A DNA stretch of 40,933 nucleotides, taken from a virus. The position numbers and the translations under genes were made by a program. Below are positions 6,120-32,184 of the stretch, piece by piece (position 1 is the first letter of the stretch; every line of letters starts with the position of its first letter). Where the stretch lies: IMG/VR virus record IMGVR_UViG_3300017963_000129; one strand, 5' to 3'. The notes below the pieces were generated by a model. The model did no database searches and had not been told where the DNA came from. It worked only from the letters and a program-made list of their open reading frames with translations.

Positions 6120-7700
6120 TCACCTCGTTTCCAAAGTTAATGTCGCACTCCGCGACCACAAGGTGAGATCCCGCGTAACCGCCGCCCCGCTCACCACCGA
6201 AACCGTAACCGCAATCACCGCCACTGTCAGCGTCACCGTGCTGGGCAACACCAACCCGTCCCCCACCACCACTGGCGCCACCGTGCTGACCGTCAGCGCC
6301 TGCGTGCTGGCTGATACAATGATATCCCCTGCTAACACTGTAGGCGCCACCGTACTGGCCGTCAGCGCCTGCTCCCCAACCGCCACCAGCGCCCCGGCCG
6401 CGATCGTGGATGATACCGTGCTCACCGTCACCGTCTGCGTGTTGACCGCTACGGCAACCTCTCCCCCAATCAACACCGTCACCGCGATCGCGCTCACCGT
6501 CAGCGCCTGCGTATTGACCGCCACTGCGCAATCGCCGCTGATCGTGGGCGATACTGTGCTAACCGTCGCCGTCAGCGTGCTGACGTCCGCCGACACGTCC
6601 CCTGCGATGCTCACCGTCACCGCGATCGCGCTCACCGTCAGCGCCTGCGTATTGACCGTAACCAGCGCCCCGGCCGCAATCGTGGGCGAGACCGTACTGG
6701 CCGTCACACTCAGCGTGTTGACCGTAACCAACGCCCCGCCCGCAATCGTGGGCGAGACCGTGCTGGCCGTCACGCTCAATGTATTGACCGTAACCAACGC
6801 CCCGCCCGCAATCGTGGGTGATACCGTGCTGGCCGTCACGCTCAACGTGTTGACCGTCGTGCTTGCATTGGCCACCACGCTGATCGTGGGCGAGACCGTG
6901 CTGGCCATCACGCTCAGCGTGTTGACCGTCGTGCTCACATTGCCCACCACGCTGATCGTGGGCGAGACCGTACTGGCCGTCACGCTTAGCGTGTTGACCG
7001 TCGTGCTCACATTGCCCACCACGCTGATCGTGGGCGAGACCGTGCTGGCCGTCACGCTTAGCGTGTTGACCGTCGTGCTCGCGTTGGCCACCACGCTGAT
7101 CGTCGGCGTAACCGTGCTCACCGTCGCCGTCAGCGTATTCGGCGTAGCCGTCACGCTCACGGCCCCCGATAAGTTGCCCCCCTCCCAGTCGTCGATGCGA
7201 AACGCCGCACTCTCGTTATAGCCCGATACGCCAGCGGAACCCGAAGACATAGCCGAGTCGGTATCGGATGTTTCTTCCACATCGTCAATCAGCGCTGTTA
7301 TCGTCGTGCCTTCGGCCTCAATGCGCATCACCTCCGAGGCCGAGAGAGCGGTACCGTTGCTGCCTAACTGCGTCCAGGAACCGGACACCATCTTGAACAG
7401 ATACGAATTGGTATTATCTGTGTAAAAGCCGTAATAGGTCGCGGCCGACGCGTGACACCGCACAGCTACACCAATAGCGTAGGCAGCGCTACCAATTGCG
7501 ACTGCTGTCGCCTCGGCGTACTGATCGTTATTAAAGCTGTCCGCGTTCCAATGCGCGCCAGCCTCATCAACAGCTTCATCCGGCCCCAGCGCGTTGGTCT
7601 GGATGTGGAAGTCGCCAGTATTCAGCGTCCAGTTCGCACTATGTGCGGTTAGCTGCGTGCCATTGCTATTGGTAAAACTGTCGGTTGCCGGTAAAGCCAC
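6120..7700 (-). CDS. Fibre protein: N-terminal jelly-roll (LamG/concanavalin-like) domain plus about 15 tandem 22-24-aa repeats
   Basis: The N-terminal ~180 aa look like a globular beta domain. The rest is repeats of the type VNTLSVTASTVSPTISVVGNVSTT. The C-terminal end LTLWSRSATLTLETR is paralogous to the end of 8380..9573. Confidence 0.7.
   Translation of the reverse strand: MALPATDSFTNSNGTQLTAHSANWTLNTGDFHIQTNALGPDEAVDEAGAHWNADSFNNDQYAEATAVAIGSAAYAIGVAVRCHASAATYYGFYTDNTNSYLFKMVSGSWTQLGSNGTALSASEVMRIEAEGTTITALIDDVEETSDTDSAMSSGSAGVSGYNESAAFRIDDWEGGNLSGAVSVTATPNTLTATVSTVTPTISVVANASTTVNTLSVTASTVSPTISVVGNVSTTVNTLSVTASTVSPTISVVGNVSTTVNTLSVMASTVSPTISVVANASTTVNTLSVTASTVSPTIAGGALVTVNTLSVTASTVSPTIAGGALVTVNTLSVTASTVSPTIAAGALVTVNTQALTVSAIAVTVSIAGDVSADVSTLTATVSTVSPTISGDCAVAVNTQALTVSAIAVTVLIGGEVAVAVNTQTVTVSTVSSTIAAGALVAVGEQALTASTVAPTVLAGDIIVSASTQALTVSTVAPVVVGDGLVLPSTVTLTVAVIAVTVSVVSGAAVTRDLTLWSRSATLTLETR
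6649..7134. repeat. Near-perfect tandem repeats inside the fibre gene: 3 x 66 bp (6649-6846) then 4 x 72 bp (6847-7134)
   Basis: The anchor gt(g/a)ttgaccgt recurs at 6649, 6715, 6781, 6847, 6919, 6991 and 7063. More diverged copies extend from about 6185 to 7150. Confidence 0.9.
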
Positions 7701-8379: not shown

Positions 8380-9573
8380 CTATAACACATCATTCAGCGT
8401 CAATCCCGTCGATCGATCGTTCAGCGTCAGCGTGATGATATTCCGCACCGTCGATACCGTCACCACAATCGCGGCCACCGTCACCGCCTGCGTGCTGGCC
8501 ACCGCCACCGCGTCCCCGCTGATCGTTGGATCCACCACGCTTGCCATCAGCGACTGCTCCCCCACCGCCGCCAGCGCACCGGCCATGGCCGTGGGCGATA
8601 CCGCGCTGACCGTCGCCGTCAGCGTGCTGACCGTCACCGCGCAATCCCCACTGACCATCAGAGATAGCACACTGGCAGTCAACACCACCGGAACCGTCAG
8701 CGCAACCGCGTTTGAATTGGTAGTTACCGCCCGATCCACCAGGCTCGTCGTCAGCGTCTGCGTATTGACCGCCGCCAGCGCACCGGCCATGGCCGTGGGC
8801 GATACCGTGCTGACCGTCACCGCCAGCGCGCTTAGACTGATACTCTGGTTAGTGCCCAGCGACACCGTAGGCGATACCGTGCTGACCGTCACCGCCAGCG
8901 CGTTAACCGCCGCCAGCACCCCGGTCACGGCCGCGGGCGATACCGTGCTGACCGTCACGCTCAGCGTGCTGACCGTAACCCCGCTGTCCCCGCTCACCGT
9001 CGGCGCCACCACGCTCACTGTCACGCTCAGTGTAGTAGCCGCCGCTAGCGTCCCCACCGTATACTCAATTATCAGCCGCGCTCCGTACGAGTTGCCGGTA
9101 TAATCGTACATTCGCGGCTCAAAATCCACCCCACTCGTGCTATTCAATAGCACAGCCAGCGCGTTGTACTGGCTCCACCCTCCCCGGTCGATGATTTCCT
9201 GAATGATCGTTGTGATGTCCGGACTCGCCTGCCAGCCCACGCCCACGCTGGCGCTGTCCCAGCTCACTGATCCGGAGGTCGTTGTCCGATTGGATATATT
9301 GCTGGCCGTCGCCGCAAACGTCGCCGCGTCGTCCTCATCCTCTCCATAGATCACAAAATGAATTTCGTCATTGGCGCTATCGTGAGCATACATCTCCAGA
9401 TATGCGGACGTAATTGTATAACTGCCCCCCAACGGCACGGTCGTGAACCGCGCTCCCAACCACGCACCAGCTTGCACTATCGTCGGGCTGGAATCCGACG
9501 TTAATACCTGAGTTCCGCTTGTCTGGTTTGCATCGTCAGACGATGCGTTTACCTGCAATATGACACTAGGCAT
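8380..9573 (-). CDS. Fibre protein paralog: distinct N-terminal globular domain plus about 9 Ser/Thr/Val repeats
   Basis: The N-terminus QVNASSDDANQTSG... looks like a carbohydrate-binding-like beta domain. The C-terminal part carries TLSVTVSTVSPT-type repeats (about 8400-9050) and ends ITLTLNDRSTGLTLNDVL. Confidence 0.7.
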   Translation of the reverse strand: MPSVILQVNASSDDANQTSGTQVLTSDSSPTIVQAGAWLGARFTTVPLGGSYTITSAYLEMYAHDSANDEIHFVIYGEDEDDAATFAATASNISNRTTTSGSVSWDSASVGVGWQASPDITTIIQEIIDRGGWSQYNALAVLLNSTSGVDFEPRMYDYTGNSYGARLIIEYTVGTLAAATTLSVTVSVVAPTVSGDSGVTVSTLSVTVSTVSPAAVTGVLAAVNALAVTVSTVSPTVSLGTNQSISLSALAVTVSTVSPTAMAGALAAVNTQTLTTSLVDRAVTTNSNAVALTVPVVLTASVLSLMVSGDCAVTVSTLTATVSAVSPTAMAGALAAVGEQSLMASVVDPTISGDAVAVASTQAVTVAAIVVTVSTVRNIITLTLNDRSTGLTLNDVL

Positions 9574-15706: not shown

Positions 15707-15730
15707 TTTTCACACTCCTATTAGTCTTAG

Positions 15731-15799
15731 CTCCCCTCCCAGCGGGAGGAGCTGCTTCCTACTCCCCTCCCGCTGGGAGGGGCTGGGGGAGGGAGAAAC
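15731..15799 (+). repeat. Palindromic element, copy 3 (composite: half unit plus full unit)
   Basis: ctcccctcccagcgggaggagctgcttcct a ctcccctcccgctgggaggggctgggggagggagaaac. Fills the scaffold-capsid intergenic gap. Confidence 0.85.
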
Positions 15800-25443: not shown

Positions 25444-25489
25444 TTTAGCGCCTCCTGACCCCTCTCTCGCAATCCATACGCTGGCCCCT

Positions 25490-25560
25490 ACGCCAGCATA
25501 ACCGCCAGCCCACACGCCAGCATAACCGCCAGCCCGCACGCCAGCATAACCGCCAGCGTC
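25490..25560. repeat. 3 x 24-bp tandem repeat, equal to six CGCCAGC heptamers at an exact 12-bp phase (candidate centromere)
   Basis: Heptamer starts are at 25491, 25503, 25515, 25527, 25539 and 25551. The array lies immediately downstream of the RHH gene stop. Confidence 0.85.
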
Positions 25561-27065: not shown

Positions 27066-27182
27066 ATGACATAACACATAGCAGTCGCCGACATAGTAAA
27101 GAATCGCTCTCAAACCTCATATAAGTAAGTTCTACAAGCTCCAAAGTTCCATACTCCACTCCTCCAAATCTATGTAACTCTA

Positions 27183-27250
27183 CTCCCCTCCCATCGAGAG
27201 GGCTTCGCCTTCCTGACTCCCCTCCCAGCAGGAGGGGCTGGGGGAGGGGA
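27183..27250 (+). repeat. Palindromic element, copy 4 (composite)
   Basis: ctcccctcccatcgagagggcttcgccttcct ga ctcccctcccagcaggaggggctgggggagggga. Confidence 0.85.
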
Positions 27251-27355: not shown

Positions 27356-30022
27356 CTACGCATCCAACAATAGCTCCTTTTGCTCTCCCACCAACCCCAT
27401 TCCCTCCCGTAATACCTGGATAATGTGCTTCAGCGCAGCCTCATCAATCCCAAACCGCCTCCGCAGCGCGTTCATCCGCTCGTGATCGATCATCACCACA
27501 TACGCTCGCCCCGCGTCGCTGCGCCGCTCCGTGCCGAAGTGCAATTGTTTGCGTACCACCTCACCGATCTTTTTCGGCTTCACCCGCAGATTCCCCTCCG
27601 GCCCCCCCTCATCCTCCTCATCCACATCCTCATTCTCCGCATCGATCAACACATTCGTCGCTCGTGCTACCCGTTTCACCGCCAAATCTGGCGGGATCCG
27701 CTTATCCTCCAGGTCCATATAATACAATCCCACCATCGCCTCCAGCACCCGCGCCGTCAGCGACGCCCCCCGCTCCACAATCAGTTGCCGGTTGTACTCC
27801 CGGATAAACCCCCGCAGCTCTCCCTGCAACTCTGGATCATCAATCAGCGTCTGCAGCGCCACCGTCACCTGGTTCAAACGTTGCTCCACACTGACGTCCA
27901 TCTGGCTATAATCCAGCTCGATCTCCGGCTTCCATTGCTCCAGCCGGAACCGCAACAGCGCGTTGCGGATCGGCAGCACCTCATCCTCCCAAAACCTCAA
28001 CGGCATGTCGATCGGGATATCGGTCCGCAGCGTCGGACCCCCTGCCTCGTGCGTCAGACATCGCGACTCCAGCGCCCAATCCCGGAATCGCTTTCGTGTA
28101 GCCAATATCTTGCACCCATAAACCTCAAACACCTCCGTTTCAAACCCCGCGTGCTTGTCTCCGGACCGCAGCACCACGCCCTGCGTCTTCTGATACCCCG
28201 TGTTAAGAATCTTCACGATATCCGCCGCTTCGTCCGAGCTCCGGAAATCCCCCTCATCCAGCACCAGAGTGCCCCGGTATCGATCCAGCAGGCGAAAAAT
28301 GGGAGAAGTAGTAGCCGCGCCCGTCACGAATATCGGCCGGTAGCACATCGCCCCCACCACCTGGATGAACCGACTTTTGCCTGTCCCCGCATCCCCCAGC
28401 ATCCGCAGATAAGGCACCGTGTTGAAACAGTCATACAGCCAGGAGAAGAGCACGTAGTATGATGCTAAGCTCTCATAAAACTTGTCTACATCCACATACT
28501 TGTTGATCAGTCCCTGCACCGACCCCACGAGTTGCCGCAGGCTGGGCGACTCCCCTGGTAGCTCCGCGGGAAAGAGGACCACGTGCTTGGTCAAGACCGG
28601 ATTGAGCGCCGACACTGGCCGATATCGGATCCCGTGCAGATCCAGATGATCCACCACCCCGATGCGCTCATCCGGATAGCGCACCGCGAACTTGGTACGC
28701 CACCGCCCCGGTCCATGCCCGTTGCGGCTGGGCTCTGGCGGTATCACCATCATCTCAAATAGATGCTCCGAAAGATACCCGCCTGGGGTCTCGATCTGCA
28801 TCTCCGGTTCGATCTCGCTGTCCCGCGCTCCCTGGATCTCCCCCCGCTTTTCCTTATCCAGCCGGTTGAACATCCGCACCTGGATTCCCAGCCGCTTCGC
28901 CAAATTGTCTTTCATCATCGACGCGTTGAAGGTATCCAGCCGAGCTATCAATTCAAACGCCCGCTCGATTGCCCGCGGTCGGTCCACGCCATCCACCTGA
29001 CCGCACTCATCCGCCACCAGCTCCACCCACGTCGGCGATTCATCGATCAGCGCCGTCGCCTCTTCCTCTGTCCCCCCTGCCTGCAGCCAGTCATTCCAGT
29101 CGTGGATCTCATCCGCCAGCTCCGCCACTCGCACCATCGGCCCCAACGCATCCGCCAGTGTCTGCACCTTCACGCCCGCATCCAGCCCGATCACCACCGT
29201 CTCGTGCTTGCCCAGCATCCGCGCCAGGCTCTCCAGTTCCTCCGCAGCCAACCCCACGCCTGCTAACGCCACGCTGGCCAGCCCCCACTGAGCTAATGTG
29301 ATTGCGCAAGCCGGACCCTCCACCACCACCACCAGGTCCGAAAACCCCGAGTACTCATAATTCAGATATCTCTGCCGAGCCCCCACAAGCGGAACAGGCG
29401 GGTTCCAATGTTCCTTGCTCTCCGAGCTCGCGGACCGGCATAAGTAATACACCACCCGGCCGCCTCGCACACACGGATACACCAGCATCCCCCCAGGCGT
29501 CGACAGCACCGCCCTCGCCGCATCACTGCCCACATCCGCCCCGTGCAGCTCCAACGTCGTTCTCAGCGACTTCACATCCCCATCACAATACCCCAGCCCT
29601 GCCGCCCGGATCGTCTCATCCTCCCAGCCCCGGGCGCGACAATAGGCCAGCGCATCAGGCGTCTCCCGCAACCGCTGCACCCAATGCCTAGCCGCCATCG
29701 TCAGCACGTCCGTTCGCTGCCTGGTCGCCGCCACCACCGCCGTATCCTGACCCCACGTCGGAGCTGGCAGCCCCCCTCGCCCCGCCAGATACTCAACCGC
29801 CTGCCTGAAATCCATCCCGCGACGCTGGGCAAGCCACTCAATCACATCGCCGAATTCACCGGTCGAATTCCAGTGATACATCTGCCGCTGCGTATCCACC
29901 ACCAGACTATCATGCTCGACCCCTCGCAAATAGCGCCCCCGCCGCTTCGCCAGTGTCACATCTTCGTCAATGATCGTCTCAATTGAGACTGCGCCTTTGA
30001 TCTCTTCGAGGTCGAAACTCAT
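27356..30022 (-). CDS. DNA primase-helicase fusion (DnaG-like Toprim primase plus P-loop NTPase)
   Basis: The DnaG-like N-terminus aligns by eye to the CHC2 zinc-binding region but has lost the Cys ligands. Toprim-like VVVVEGPACAITLAQWG and VVIGLDAG. Walker A GDAGTGKS and Walker B TLVLDEGD. Confidence 0.8.
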   Translation of the reverse strand: MSFDLEEIKGAVSIETIIDEDVTLAKRRGRYLRGVEHDSLVVDTQRQMYHWNSTGEFGDVIEWLAQRRGMDFRQAVEYLAGRGGLPAPTWGQDTAVVAATRQRTDVLTMAARHWVQRLRETPDALAYCRARGWEDETIRAAGLGYCDGDVKSLRTTLELHGADVGSDAARAVLSTPGGMLVYPCVRGGRVVYYLCRSASSESKEHWNPPVPLVGARQRYLNYEYSGFSDLVVVVEGPACAITLAQWGLASVALAGVGLAAEELESLARMLGKHETVVIGLDAGVKVQTLADALGPMVRVAELADEIHDWNDWLQAGGTEEEATALIDESPTWVELVADECGQVDGVDRPRAIERAFELIARLDTFNASMMKDNLAKRLGIQVRMFNRLDKEKRGEIQGARDSEIEPEMQIETPGGYLSEHLFEMMVIPPEPSRNGHGPGRWRTKFAVRYPDERIGVVDHLDLHGIRYRPVSALNPVLTKHVVLFPAELPGESPSLRQLVGSVQGLINKYVDVDKFYESLASYYVLFSWLYDCFNTVPYLRMLGDAGTGKSRFIQVVGAMCYRPIFVTGAATTSPIFRLLDRYRGTLVLDEGDFRSSDEAADIVKILNTGYQKTQGVVLRSGDKHAGFETEVFEVYGCKILATRKRFRDWALESRCLTHEAGGPTLRTDIPIDMPLRFWEDEVLPIRNALLRFRLEQWKPEIELDYSQMDVSVEQRLNQVTVALQTLIDDPELQGELRGFIREYNRQLIVERGASLTARVLEAMVGLYYMDLEDKRIPPDLAVKRVARATNVLIDAENEDVDEEDEGGPEGNLRVKPKKIGEVVRKQLHFGTERRSDAGRAYVVMIDHERMNALRRRFGIDEAALKHIIQVLREGMGLVGEQKELLLDA

Positions 30023-30144
30023 AATATCTCCATTCTAAGTGCACATAACGACTTGTGATAATCCCTGTTATCAGAACTGCAACCCTCAGATCCGCACCAT
30101 CCAACCCTGCGCCACACAGCGCCCCGCCAAAGACCGTCCCGGCA

Positions 30145-30249
30145 GGGAATATTCGGAACTTTCGAGGGAATATTCGGAACTTTCGAGGGAATATTCGGAA
30201 CTTTCGAGGGAATATTCGGAACTTTCGAGGGAATATTCGGAACTTTCGG
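30145..30249. repeat. Five perfect tandem 21-bp iterons (gggaatattcggaactttcga)
   Basis: Units start at 30145, 30166, 30187, 30208 and 30229. Only the last base of unit 5 differs. Each contains the GAATATTC palindrome and a CGGAACTTT core shared with the 27.0-27.35 kb motifs. Confidence 0.95.
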
Positions 30250-30671
30250 ATTTATCTCGCTGCTGACTTCTCATCATCCTCCCCCGTCTACGTTAGACAT
30301 GGTGATCTCCTTTCTACACCCCGCATTGCCATGCTTGACCTTGCCTTTACTTCGCTTCGCTGTGTTATGCCTGGCCATGCCCTTGCGCTGCGCCGCTTGA
30401 CCCCGCATAACCTTGCCCCCGCCTCACGATGCTCTGCAACCCTACGCTTTGCCATGCCTTTGCTACGCTCTGCCGCGCGTTGCTCCGCCCCGCCCTCGCT
30501 ACACCAGGCTGTGCTCTGCTACTGCCTACTATCATCATCCGCCCCGCCGCGCCGTCTAGCTGGCGTCTTTTAGTTGCGCTCCTTCAGCATTAGTCACGCA
30601 CGCGGCAGGGAGATGATGCTTTGCTGAGCCTTTGCTTCGCGAAGCACAGCTCCGCCAGGCTGCGCCGCCGC

Positions 30672-31259
30672 CTAGAGGATCTCGTACTCAAACCGTCCCC
30701 AACCCGCGTTGCGCCACTGACCCAGACCCCGCAGCGCGCCATACTCCAGCCACTCCCGCAACAGCGCCTCATCCACGCCCCCCAGCACCAGCACCTCAAA
30801 CTCCATACTCGTGCTTGCCGGGCACATATCCGAGCGCGCCAGCGTAACCCGCTCCCCCTGCGCCGTGCTGGCTCGCAGTGGTCGCTCGTTCACCCCCATC
30901 TCGCCCGCCACCTGCAGCCCGATCTTCCGCGGGTTCACAAACACCAGCCCGTCGATCACCTTCCGGTACGCGGTCAGCTTCACCGACTGCGTGCCCTTCA
31001 CCCGCCGCAACATGCCGCACGCATCCTTGAAAAAACCCTTGATCACATAATCGTAGATCATCGGCTGGCCATCCGCCAGCTTGTGGAAACCCGTCCATCC
31101 CTTCTCCTCGATCGTCTCCACACTCGACAGCTCCTCCGCCAGCGCCTCATCCGTCAGCGCCGCCTTGCCCGCGATATACTGCCCATACACCTCCTCATCC
31201 TTGGGAACAGTCCCCAACACCGGCTCCACAAACGTCAACCTGATTCGATACTTGTCCAT
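30672..31259 (-). CDS. Hypothetical protein with a Cas6/RAMP-type glycine-rich loop
   Basis: AGGAGGGG RBS before the ATG at 31259 (MDKYRIRLTFVEPVLGT...). The C-terminus is GLGQWRNAGWGRFEYEIL, which fits GhGxxxxxGhG. IKGFFKDACG is reminiscent of RAMP motifs. Confidence 0.5.
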   Translation of the reverse strand: MDKYRIRLTFVEPVLGTVPKDEEVYGQYIAGKAALTDEALAEELSSVETIEEKGWTGFHKLADGQPMIYDYVIKGFFKDACGMLRRVKGTQSVKLTAYRKVIDGLVFVNPRKIGLQVAGEMGVNERPLRASTAQGERVTLARSDMCPASTSMEFEVLVLGGVDEALLREWLEYGALRGLGQWRNAGWGRFEYEIL

Positions 31260-32184
31260 CGTTACCCCTCCTCTGTAATAAGGTCTCAACATCCCGCCAT
31301 CCCTCATCCACAAACCCCCGCATATGCTTCAGATACCTCTGCGTTGTCTCCAGAGAGGAATGTCCCAGCAACCACGAAATCTCCATAAGCCCCCTTCCCG
31401 CCTCCACCCGCACGTGCGCCGCCGTATGCCGCAGCGTGTGCGCGTGCACCCACTCCCCCAGCCCCGCCAATCGCGCATAACGCTTCACCAACTGATTAAA
31501 CCACTCACCCGACAGCTCAGAGGCAGCGTCCCGTCCATTGTGGGCAACAAAAACGGGATCGCCAGCCTTCAATGGCCAGCGTCCCGCCGCCTCCAGATAC
31601 AGCACAATCGCCTGATACACCGGCTCCGGCATATCGTCCCAACGCGCCTTCCCCCCCTTGCCGCGCCACGCATAGCGCCGCTTGCCCTCCATCGTACACG
31701 CAATATCCCCCCAGCGCAGCCCCCGGATCTCCGCCGATCGCCGCCCCGTATACACCGCCATCAGGATCAGCGCGTAATCCCGCATACCCATCACCGTCCC
31801 ACGGTCGATCGCCCCCAACAGATCCCGCAGCTCCCCCACCTCCAGCGGCCGCGAATTCCCATAGCGCGCCACCCTGGGACGTTTCACCTGCGCCACCGGA
31901 TTATGCCTGGCCAGCGGCTCTCCCGCCGCGCTCGTATACGTCTGCGAGCAATATCGATAAAACGAACTCAGCGCCGCCAGCCGCGCCCGGATCGTCGCCT
32001 CCGAACACCCCCGCGCCCTCAACTCAGCCGCATACTCGGAGATCGTCGCCCCCCCTACTTCCCCGTAGCAGCAAGGGGCGATAAAGCTCCCAAAGTCGTC
32101 CGCCGCGAACTCATACGCCCGCCGTGTATGCTCGCTGCTCGCCGTCCCCAGCCAAAAGCGCCGCGCCCTGGTCCACTCACTCAT
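31195..32184 (-). CDS. Tyrosine recombinase (XerC/D-like), second recombinase of the element
   Basis: YTGRRSAEIRGLRWGDI (Arg), HTLRHTAAH (H-x-x-R) and LLGHSSLETTQRYL (His, Tyr). Confidence 0.85.
   Translation of the reverse strand: MSEWTRARRFWLGTASSEHTRRAYEFAADDFGSFIAPCCYGEVGGATISEYAAELRARGCSEATIRARLAALSSFYRYCSQTYTSAAGEPLARHNPVAQVKRPRVARYGNSRPLEVGELRDLLGAIDRGTVMGMRDYALILMAVYTGRRSAEIRGLRWGDIACTMEGKRRYAWRGKGGKARWDDMPEPVYQAIVLYLEAAGRWPLKAGDPVFVAHNGRDAASELSGEWFNQLVKRYARLAGLGEWVHAHTLRHTAAHVRVEAGRGLMEISWLLGHSSLETTQRYLKHMRGFVDEGWRDVETLLQRRGNDGQVSNQVDVCGAGVGDCSQG

Follow-up and report, generated by a model that had tools for sequence, protein, structure and literature searches.

The question raised by this locus is what a small phage protein, carrying near its C-terminus a glycine-rich loop of the kind found in Cas6 and other RAMP proteins, does next to a repeat-rich non-coding region. 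The DNA that we have analysed, referred to below as the window, is the IMG/VR virus record IMGVR_UViG_3300017963_000129 in its full length of 40,933 nucleotides. An earlier reading of the letters alone (the sequence-only reading) had described the protein as a solo Cas6/RAMP-type protein, and it considered both a phage-borne RAMP derivative that binds or processes RNA and a convergent motif in a replication protein. The analyses described here indicate that the locus is very probably a VIPR system, consisting of a Vipr protein and a staggered vrRNA array, of a temperate tailed phage.

The VIPR systems (short for Viral Interference Programmable Repeat) combine the protein Vipr with vrRNA (bioRxiv 10.64898/2026.04.26.720920,.720927; 10.64898/2026.10.15.759431). 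In the accessible parts of the first of these preprints, Vipr proteins are described as phage-encoded stand-alone RAMPs flanked by vrRNAs of 9–16 YNNGG (GGY/NN) units and a 3' tail, and the systems are divided into seven types with six vap accessory genes, the presence of a vap gene beside vipr being typical, not universal (bioRxiv 10.64898/2026.04.26.720920). The same source reports alternative repeats of the forms NNNGG, YNNNG, and NNNNG as well as "staggered" arrays (fig. S18 legend, methods), and a mode of DNA recognition in which the NN dinucleotides are read with one base skipped and rival phages and satellites are thereby silenced (bioRxiv 10.64898/2026.04.26.720920). The system taken as reference, of type II, is that of Escherichia phage SUSP1, whose Vipr co-purifies with RNA and forms a filament with six subunits per turn; its GGY bases are held by W178 and R179 of the G-loop together with D177, H17, and the thumb residue R138, as given in the structural paper (bioRxiv 10.64898/2026.04.26.720920,.720927). 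The published work, to the extent that its text was accessible, demonstrates anti-satellite and anti-prophage targeting and reports no self-targets (bioRxiv 10.64898/2026.04.26.720920,.720927).

The open reading frame noted by the sequence-only reading is real, and it lies on the minus strand, which that reading had left unstated. The gene and its ribosome-binding site are as follows.

30672..31259, minus strand: vipr gene, encoding a 195-aa stand-alone protein predicted to be a Cas7-like RAMP (translation, AF2, Foldseek, VIA, hhalign).
31267..31271, minus strand: Shine–Dalgarno sequence GGAGG (sequence read, conserved N-terminus).

The translated protein begins with MDKYRIRLTFVEPVLGT and ends with GLGQWRNAGWGRFEYEIL. 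The Shine–Dalgarno sequence (31271–31267) is placed 7 nt 5' of the ATG, inside the 3' end of a recombinase ORF, and the start of vipr overlaps the final 65 nt of this upstream ORF. Among the homologues M1 is invariant and both L15 and G16 are invariant or nearly so, and this conservation of the N-terminus indicates that the start codon giving 195 aa is correct; the version of the protein present in the protein collection is a shorter call of 181 aa.

The window encodes a terminase large subunit, a portal protein, a head morphogenesis protein, and a tape-measure protein, in addition to an integrase, ParA, and primase, and its source is a temperate, tailed phage. On the minus strand the genes follow one another in an operon-like order, viz. 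an N6/N4 DNA methyltransferase, a tyrosine recombinase, vipr, the array described below, five 21-bp repeats, the primase (888 aa, DnaG-type, starting at 30022) and, further on, ParA. The tyrosine recombinase (31195–32184, minus strand) is complete; in just one further locus, L033, does a recombinase lie directly upstream in the same orientation, and so it does not count among the conserved partners of VIPR. No vap gene, i.e., no small co-oriented gene, is present among the recombinase, vipr, array, and primase, and a search of the window for tRNA genes yielded none. The sequence-only reading had also remarked that cas genes and a CRISPR array are missing, and in this it was right: PADLOC found no cas genes in the window, where the neighbours of vipr are the recombinase, methyltransferase, primase, and ParA genes, and no Cas10, Csm, or Cmr gene was found among the window genes. 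A repeat search of the window likewise revealed no CRISPR-like array, the sole long-period repeats (66–72 nt) being located within long ORFs.

Several other repeats were observed in the window. About 20 copies of the 66–72-nt repeat (6269–7137 and 8464–9034) lie within two minus-strand ORFs (6120–7700 and 8380–9573), neither of which has a PHROG match; in appearance these encode structural proteins built of repeat domains and do not resemble a CRISPR array. Positions 30144–30248, which lie between the pentamer array's end and the start of the primase gene (30022), are occupied by five perfect tandem copies of a 21-bp sequence (AGGGAATATTCGGAACTTTCG, plus strand); each contains the 8-bp palindrome GAATATTC, they have no pentamer rhythm, and a role as iterons or operators in the replication module is probable. 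At 25479–25557, some 360 bp downstream of the gene for ParA, there are three tandem repeats of 24 bp (CGCCAGCC..CACGCCAGCATAAC) that could serve as a partition site. Lastly, two pairs of a 21-nt element (ACTCCCCTCCC....GGGAGGG), with 31–34 nt separating the members, are found in intergenic DNA at 15730–15781 and 27182–27236 and may be terminators or regulatory hairpins.

The 195-aa protein matched no model in Pfam, PHROGs, or PADLOC, and it had one meaningless match in NCBIfam. Its relatives nevertheless form 3,510 clusters at 90% identity, all of them unnamed or "hypothetical", and at least 1,653 clusters at 50% identity. The segment G178-L-G180-QWRNA-G186-W-G188 is an exact match to the GhGxxxxxGhG pattern that the sequence-only reading had pointed out near the C-terminus. 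In 49 homologues sharing 43–64% identity with the protein, G174, R183, and G188 are invariant, and G178, Q181, and W182 are conserved in at least 90%, so that the match to the pattern is not due to chance. The G-loop covers residues 178–190 (GLGQWRNAGWGRF) and a thumb hairpin extends over residues ~122–146. Four blocks are conserved in the 49 diverse members: LTFTExxLGT, KGFFK, ERPLRAxTAQGERVALAxSE, and GLGQWRNxGxGRF. When the family profile was compared with the PDB, it matched the type VII Cas7 (E 1.6e-4) and Csm4 (E 3e-4), in both cases over the G-loop region, and thus it aligns with the corresponding loop of solved RAMPs. Two double-length relatives, P0134 (458 aa) and P0161 (432 aa), were also encountered in the representative search; P0134 contains an entire Vipr domain at residues 237–425 (hhalign E 8e-36) as well as another match, less strong, elsewhere in its sequence, and the two proteins may be tandem-fused Vipr proteins, reminiscent of the Cas7 fusions.

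The AlphaFold2 model built with the family alignment (pLDDT 94.5, pTM 0.89) consists of a beta-alpha-beta core forming a single RRM, a long beta-hairpin (residues 122–146), and a terminal strand that follows the glycine loop. Foldseek searches with this model against the PDB returned 172 matches at E<=1e-3; the best of these (~1e-7) were the type VII Cas7 and Csm3, followed by domains of Cas7-11, and the PDB matches listed were CRISPR effector complexes throughout. In the VIA-align comparison with structure representatives, the highest scores were Z 11.4 for a chain of the type III-B Cmr complex, 11.2 and 10.8 for Csm3, and 10.5 for the type VII Cas7, and 28 RAMP entries precede the first non-RAMP entry in the ranking. 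The Cas6 chains reached only Z 6.3–7.2, below more than 25 entries of the Cas7, Cas5, and Cmr types. Weak fold matches were also seen to two archaeal-virus proteins, one from Los Azufres archaeal virus 2 and the other from a betalipothrixvirus.

On the evidence of the model, the protein is a Cas7-like RAMP with one RRM and a thumb, and it is not Cas6-like. It resembles Csm3, Cmr4, the type VII Cas7, and the Cas7-11 domains in its RRM core, thumb beta-hairpin, C-terminal G-loop, and length of about 200 aa, but its identity with the type III/VII Cas7-group RAMPs is only 9–17%, and unlike theirs its locus lacks partner Cas subunits, a CRISPR repeat handle, and a 6-nt periodicity. The protein also does not belong with Csm3/Cmr4 in terms of context or profile, as there is no Cas10 operon and no match to a Cas model of Pfam, NCBIfam, or PADLOC. 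With Cas6 it shares the GhGxxxxxGhG loop near the C-terminus and the RRM fold; however, Cas6 has two tandem RRM/ferredoxin domains and is associated with a CRISPR array, whereas here one RRM with a thumb is predicted and no CRISPR array is present. Thus, of the Cas6/RAMP assignment made earlier from sequence, the RAMP part stands and the Cas6 part does not, and the duplicated ferredoxin/RRM fold for which a structural search had been suggested turned out to be a single RRM plus thumb. The suggestion of a phage-borne RAMP derivative is in agreement with the structural matches of the model to Cas7-group chains (Foldseek E 1e-7, VIA Z 10.5–11.4).

The non-coding DNA adjoining the gene is indeed repeat-rich, as had been noted earlier. 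It contains, on the strand of the gene, about 52 pentamers of the form N-G-Y-N-N that tile the region almost completely from the stop codon of vipr onward. The array and its parts are listed below.

30316..30672, minus strand: vrRNA-type array, ~52 N-G-Y-N-N pentamers (tiling; shuffle z 26.5).
30632..30666, minus strand: module M1, 7 pentamers, starting with GGC and ending with AGCAA, then 1 extra base.
30533..30618, minus strand: non-repeat hairpin that interrupts the array, with a stem of ~24 bp.
30316..30520, minus strand: distal run of modules M3–M8 (tiling).
30496–30520, minus strand: module M3, short, 5 pentamers.
30460–30494, minus strand: module M4, end RGCAA or AGTAA.
30419–30458, minus strand: module M5, 6–8 pentamers.
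30383–30417, minus strand: module M6, end RGCAA or AGTAA.
30347–30381, minus strand: module M7, end RGCAA or AGTAA.
30316–30345, minus strand: module M8, 6–8 pentamers.

The first base of the array is the G of the stop codon of vipr. At position 1 the pentamers have A (0.41) or G (0.39), at position 2 mostly G (0.80), and at position 3 C (0.70) or T (0.14); positions 4 and 5 are variable. The local chaining score of the array is 78, in comparison to 10.0 ± 2.6 (maximum 24) in 1000 dinucleotide shuffles (z = 26.5) and to a maximum of 17 among 776 other segments of the contig scanned on both strands. All of the longest runs of in-phase NGYNN in the window fall within the array, and RGYNN runs occur on the minus strand only. 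As a positive control, the pentamer detector was applied to the 90.7-kb SUSP1 genome, where it picked out the segments 27605–27966 (score 79.5) and 29148–29236 (32.5), the next best score being 14. Both of these segments are on the vipr strand in the gaps flanking vipr-vap1, and they agree with the published vrRNA positions, of which three are reported downstream and one upstream (bioRxiv 10.64898/2026.04.26.720920). Strict GGY-NN runs of four or more units are absent from the window, and on this account the array is of the looser "related consensus" (YNNNG-type) form; in the alternative YNNNG-type repeats of the preprint, as described in its accessible part, only G and Y are fixed, as is the case here (bioRxiv 10.64898/2026.04.26.720920).

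The modules mostly open with GGC and typically end with RGCAA followed by one purine. Modules M4–M8 contain 6–8 pentamers each with a single purine between modules, which gives a period of 36 or 41 nt. The same "GGC...RGCAA + 1 nt" punctuation is seen in the related loci L001 and L084–L089, and across the family modules of 6 pentamers are the most frequent and 62% of the modules have AA as their final NN. No 3' tail was found for individual guides; the modules abut, with only a single additional base at each junction. A similar arrangement is described for the preprint's "staggered" arrays: as far as its accessible text describes them, their guides are contiguous, the end of one module being the start of the next, and they also seem to be without separating spacers (bioRxiv 10.64898/2026.04.26.720920). 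Approximately 85 nt between the proximal and distal parts of the array do not tile and form a long hairpin (fold of 30521–30632: dG -46.4 kcal/mol, z -3.0), with 2 of 200 shuffles being as stable. Rfam contains no family matching the array and none matching the hairpin at E<0.1. The hairpin (30533–30618) may serve as a tail, as a site of processing, or as a terminator element; the accessible parts of the VIPR preprint contain no description of an internal hairpin like it (bioRxiv 10.64898/2026.04.26.720920). We have also considered the tract as coding DNA, since spurious ORFs cross it on both strands, yet a 5-nt unit with 1-nt punctuation cannot hold a reading frame, and the tract is therefore not coding. 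Between vipr and the array no promoter-like site was found, and hence their co-transcription is likely.

The relationship of the protein to a known Vipr was examined using the SUSP1 genome (KT454805.2), in which vipr is a 195-aa gene (28474–29061) and vap1 lies at 28031–28471, both being flanked by long intergenic gaps. This vipr gene was located from its published description and the intergenic gaps, and it was confirmed by the presence of H17 and the loop GVGDWRPRFGRF (DWR motif). In hhalign comparisons, the family profile matched the SUSP1 Vipr sequence with a probability of 85% (E 5.9e-6, 173 columns) and a 27-member profile of the SUSP1 clade with a probability of 84% (E 7.6e-6, 177 columns), the loop GLGQWRNAGWGRF being aligned to GVGDWRPRFGRF. 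A BLASTP comparison with SUSP1 Vipr covered the last 32 residues only (E 6e-4), and vipr went undetected when the family profile was run against the SUSP1 genome. By these profile matches, which are of moderate strength, the 195-aa protein appears to be a full-length homologue of SUSP1 Vipr. In the alignment W182/R183 correspond to W178/R179 and Q181 to D177; H17 of SUSP1 falls in an insertion beside T17, and the placement of the thumb arginine (R138) is unreliable.

The two systems have much in common. In each, the protein is a stand-alone RAMP that measures about 195 aa and combines one RRM with a thumb and a G-loop of the form G-h-G-x-W-R...G-R-F; both systems are encoded by phages without cas genes or CRISPR arrays; and in both, 5-nt repeats with fixed G-Y and variable NN are present on the strand of the gene in the flanking intergenic DNA. 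There are also differences between them, and their sequence relationship is a distant one. The repeat is N/R-G-Y-N-N here in contrast to G-G-Y-N-N in SUSP1, and two of the published GGY-recognising residues, H17 and D177, appear not to be conserved, T17 and Q181 being found in their place. Further, SUSP1 has separate vrRNAs of ~14–16 units, each of which continues into a 3' segment without repeats, the tail of the published description, whereas here there is one continuous array of 36/41-nt modules that starts, unlike in SUSP1, at the vipr stop codon; and vap1 is present in SUSP1 but a vap gene is absent here.

To determine how widely the gene and array occur together, we have surveyed 160 homologous loci spanning 6–20 kb each, 80 of which are from GTDB species genomes and 80 from the at least 553 loci in IMG/VR. 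The search for related loci used a closer alignment of 16 sequences; the 49-sequence alignment had no conserved stretch. In 130 of the 160 loci, the best pentamer array (score >=30) shares the strand of the gene and is no more than 200 nt away from it, in 119 cases downstream and in 11 upstream, and several of the remaining 30 loci have weaker arrays in the same place. These arrays usually begin within tens of bases of the stop codon. No neighbouring or accessory gene was shared across 81 homologous loci, whose usual setting is the early region of a temperate phage, after the integrase, repressor, and cro genes. Among the 80 GTDB loci, the nearest relatives (54–65% identity) are from Anaerolineae and other Chloroflexota, and others are from Oscillospiraceae, Ruminococcus, Faecalibacterium, Bacteroidota, Planctomycetota, Actinomycetota, and further groups. 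The Vipr clade spans Bacillota, Bacteroidota, Chloroflexota, Planctomycetota, and other phyla, with at least 553 loci in IMG/VR. The longest array in the survey, of 1.6 kb and ~312 pentamers, was observed on a Thermodesulfobacteriota chromosome (L078, 10596–12207).

The survey of homologous neighbourhoods that had been proposed thus revealed a recurrent pentamer array beside the gene amid otherwise varied neighbours. The region 30250–30671, whose transcripts the sequence-only reading had suggested for tests of RNA binding and cleavage, corresponds to a pentamer array of the guide-RNA type that accompanies the family in 130 of 160 loci. As the array is the partner of Vipr, the description of the protein as "solo" holds true only with respect to cas genes. 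The idea of a convergent motif in a replication protein found no support, in view of the RAMP fold and of the lack of a shared replication gene in the homologous loci.

The content of the guides was also analysed. The 52 NN dinucleotides fit best to codon positions 1–2 on the sense strand of the phage's own genes (log-likelihood -139.8, versus -154.4 or lower for the other frames and strands), which is a prediction of the published wobble-skip rule, and this margin shrinks once the constant AA is removed. Each module has only 5–7 variable dinucleotides (10–14 nt), which is short for specific targeting, and with 10–14 specified bases per module the searches for targets were of low power. Within the 40.9-kb window, no module matched better than shuffled guides under skip rules 0–3; the perfect skip-3 self-matches were rejected as targets, being the array itself. 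The 313 unique modules of the family showed no excess of targets under any skip rule in the 4 Mb of the 160 loci with arrays masked, nor did adjacent modules joined with offsets of 0–7 nt in the same loci. A scan of IMG/VR with the longest module (16 specified bases) gave 32 matches where ~28 are estimated by chance. These matches were rejected as targets, as apart from a few duplicate contigs they are scattered over unrelated samples, and their in-frame bias is not evidence of targeting, since the R-N-x pattern alone produces it in coding DNA.

These results bear upon what the system acts on, and a VIPR with another job may be considered, in which the short guides would act on the phage itself or on host genes, e.g., in the control of lysogeny or replication or in silencing of host defences. 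The location of vipr inside an early/replication operon, between the recombinase and primase genes, would suit such a role, as would the very short guides and the lack of a rival-element target in the 160 loci and the IMG/VR scan. We consider it unlikely, as none of the modules outperformed shuffled guides in matching the 40.9 kb of the phage itself, and the published work, in its accessible parts, reports anti-satellite and anti-prophage targeting and no self-targets (bioRxiv 10.64898/2026.04.26.720920,.720927). The same location, beside five perfect 21-bp repeats and in a genome with ParA, also invites the interpretation that the pentamer tract is a DNA element (an origin, iterons, or a centromere) of a plasmid-like prophage, for which the RAMP-fold protein would serve as a DNA-binding initiator or partition adaptor. 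However, the array is on the strand of the gene in 130 of 160 loci, usually within tens of bases of the stop codon, which points to a transcript; the neighbours of the homologous loci vary and include no shared replication gene; the fold and G-loop are those of RNA-binding RAMPs; and the homologous SUSP1 protein is reported to co-purify with RNA (bioRxiv 10.64898/2026.04.26.720920,.720927). A DNA element is thus highly improbable.

It is scarcely credible that the protein is a remnant or decoy of a Cas system, i.e., a stray Cas6/Cas7 surviving from a CRISPR-Cas locus that has decayed, or an anti-CRISPR imitating a Cas7 subunit. The RAMP fold, whose closest structures are in type III and type VII effector complexes, could be read in this manner, and one member of the family bears the label "Cas system-associated RAMP superfamily protein" in UniProt. 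Yet neither cas genes nor a CRISPR array are present in the window and no Cas model of Pfam, NCBIfam, or PADLOC matches the protein, which instead belongs to a large conserved family (1,653 clusters at 50% identity) with a conserved pentamer array of its own, contrary to what decay or mimicry would produce. The family member with this UniProt label is the BFVD entry A0A8S5R426 (Siphoviridae sp. ctcMb1), with an identity of 52%.

A VIPR system is accordingly the reading that we prefer. The fold of the protein, its homology to SUSP1 Vipr, the array, and the co-conservation of protein and array across many phyla are shown by the analyses above, and the locus is very probably a genuine VIPR of a vap-less, staggered-array, and relaxed-repeat sort. 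By analogy with the SUSP1 system, the array would be transcribed together with vipr and cut into short, "staggered" vrRNAs corresponding to the 36/41-nt modules, on which Vipr protomers would polymerise, one per pentamer. The G-loop (W182/R183) and thumb would sequester the fixed bases and present the NN dinucleotides, and the resulting filament may bind dsDNA that matches NN-x-NN-x (the 1-nt skip rule), where it would prevent a competing phage, a satellite, or another mobile element from being transcribed. The first repeat base would not be read in this clade, since H17 and D177 of SUSP1 are T17 and Q181 here and position 1 is almost equally A or G.

The possibility that the clade represents a mechanistically distinct subtype of VIPR, with no vap, no guide tails, an unread first base, guides of 5–7 dinucleotides, and modules of 31–41 nt, is regarded by us as rather doubtful. 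If it were true, guides this short would have to act in combination or along a single long co-transcribed filament, and they may be aimed at short conserved coding motifs instead of unique sites. The modal module of 6 pentamers in the family equals the six-subunit turn of the published Vipr filament.

The VIPR class, its code, and both the staggered and the alternative-repeat variants have already been published in the 2026 preprints, and the locus opens no new question; its local peculiarities, viz. Q181/T17 together with the degenerate first base, the 36/41-nt modules, the hairpin within the array, and the direct fusion to the recombinase-primase operon, are not a discovery in themselves. 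The locus provides a compact example of VIPR from a phage of high GC content, the nearest relatives of which come from assemblies of Chloroflexota/Anaerolineae, and the survey reveals a large, uniform, and unnamed clade of Vipr proteins for which Pfam, PHROGs, NCBIfam, and PADLOC contain no model. In addition, the correlation of the Q181/T17 substitutions with the degenerate first repeat base provides a hint on how Vipr reads its repeat.
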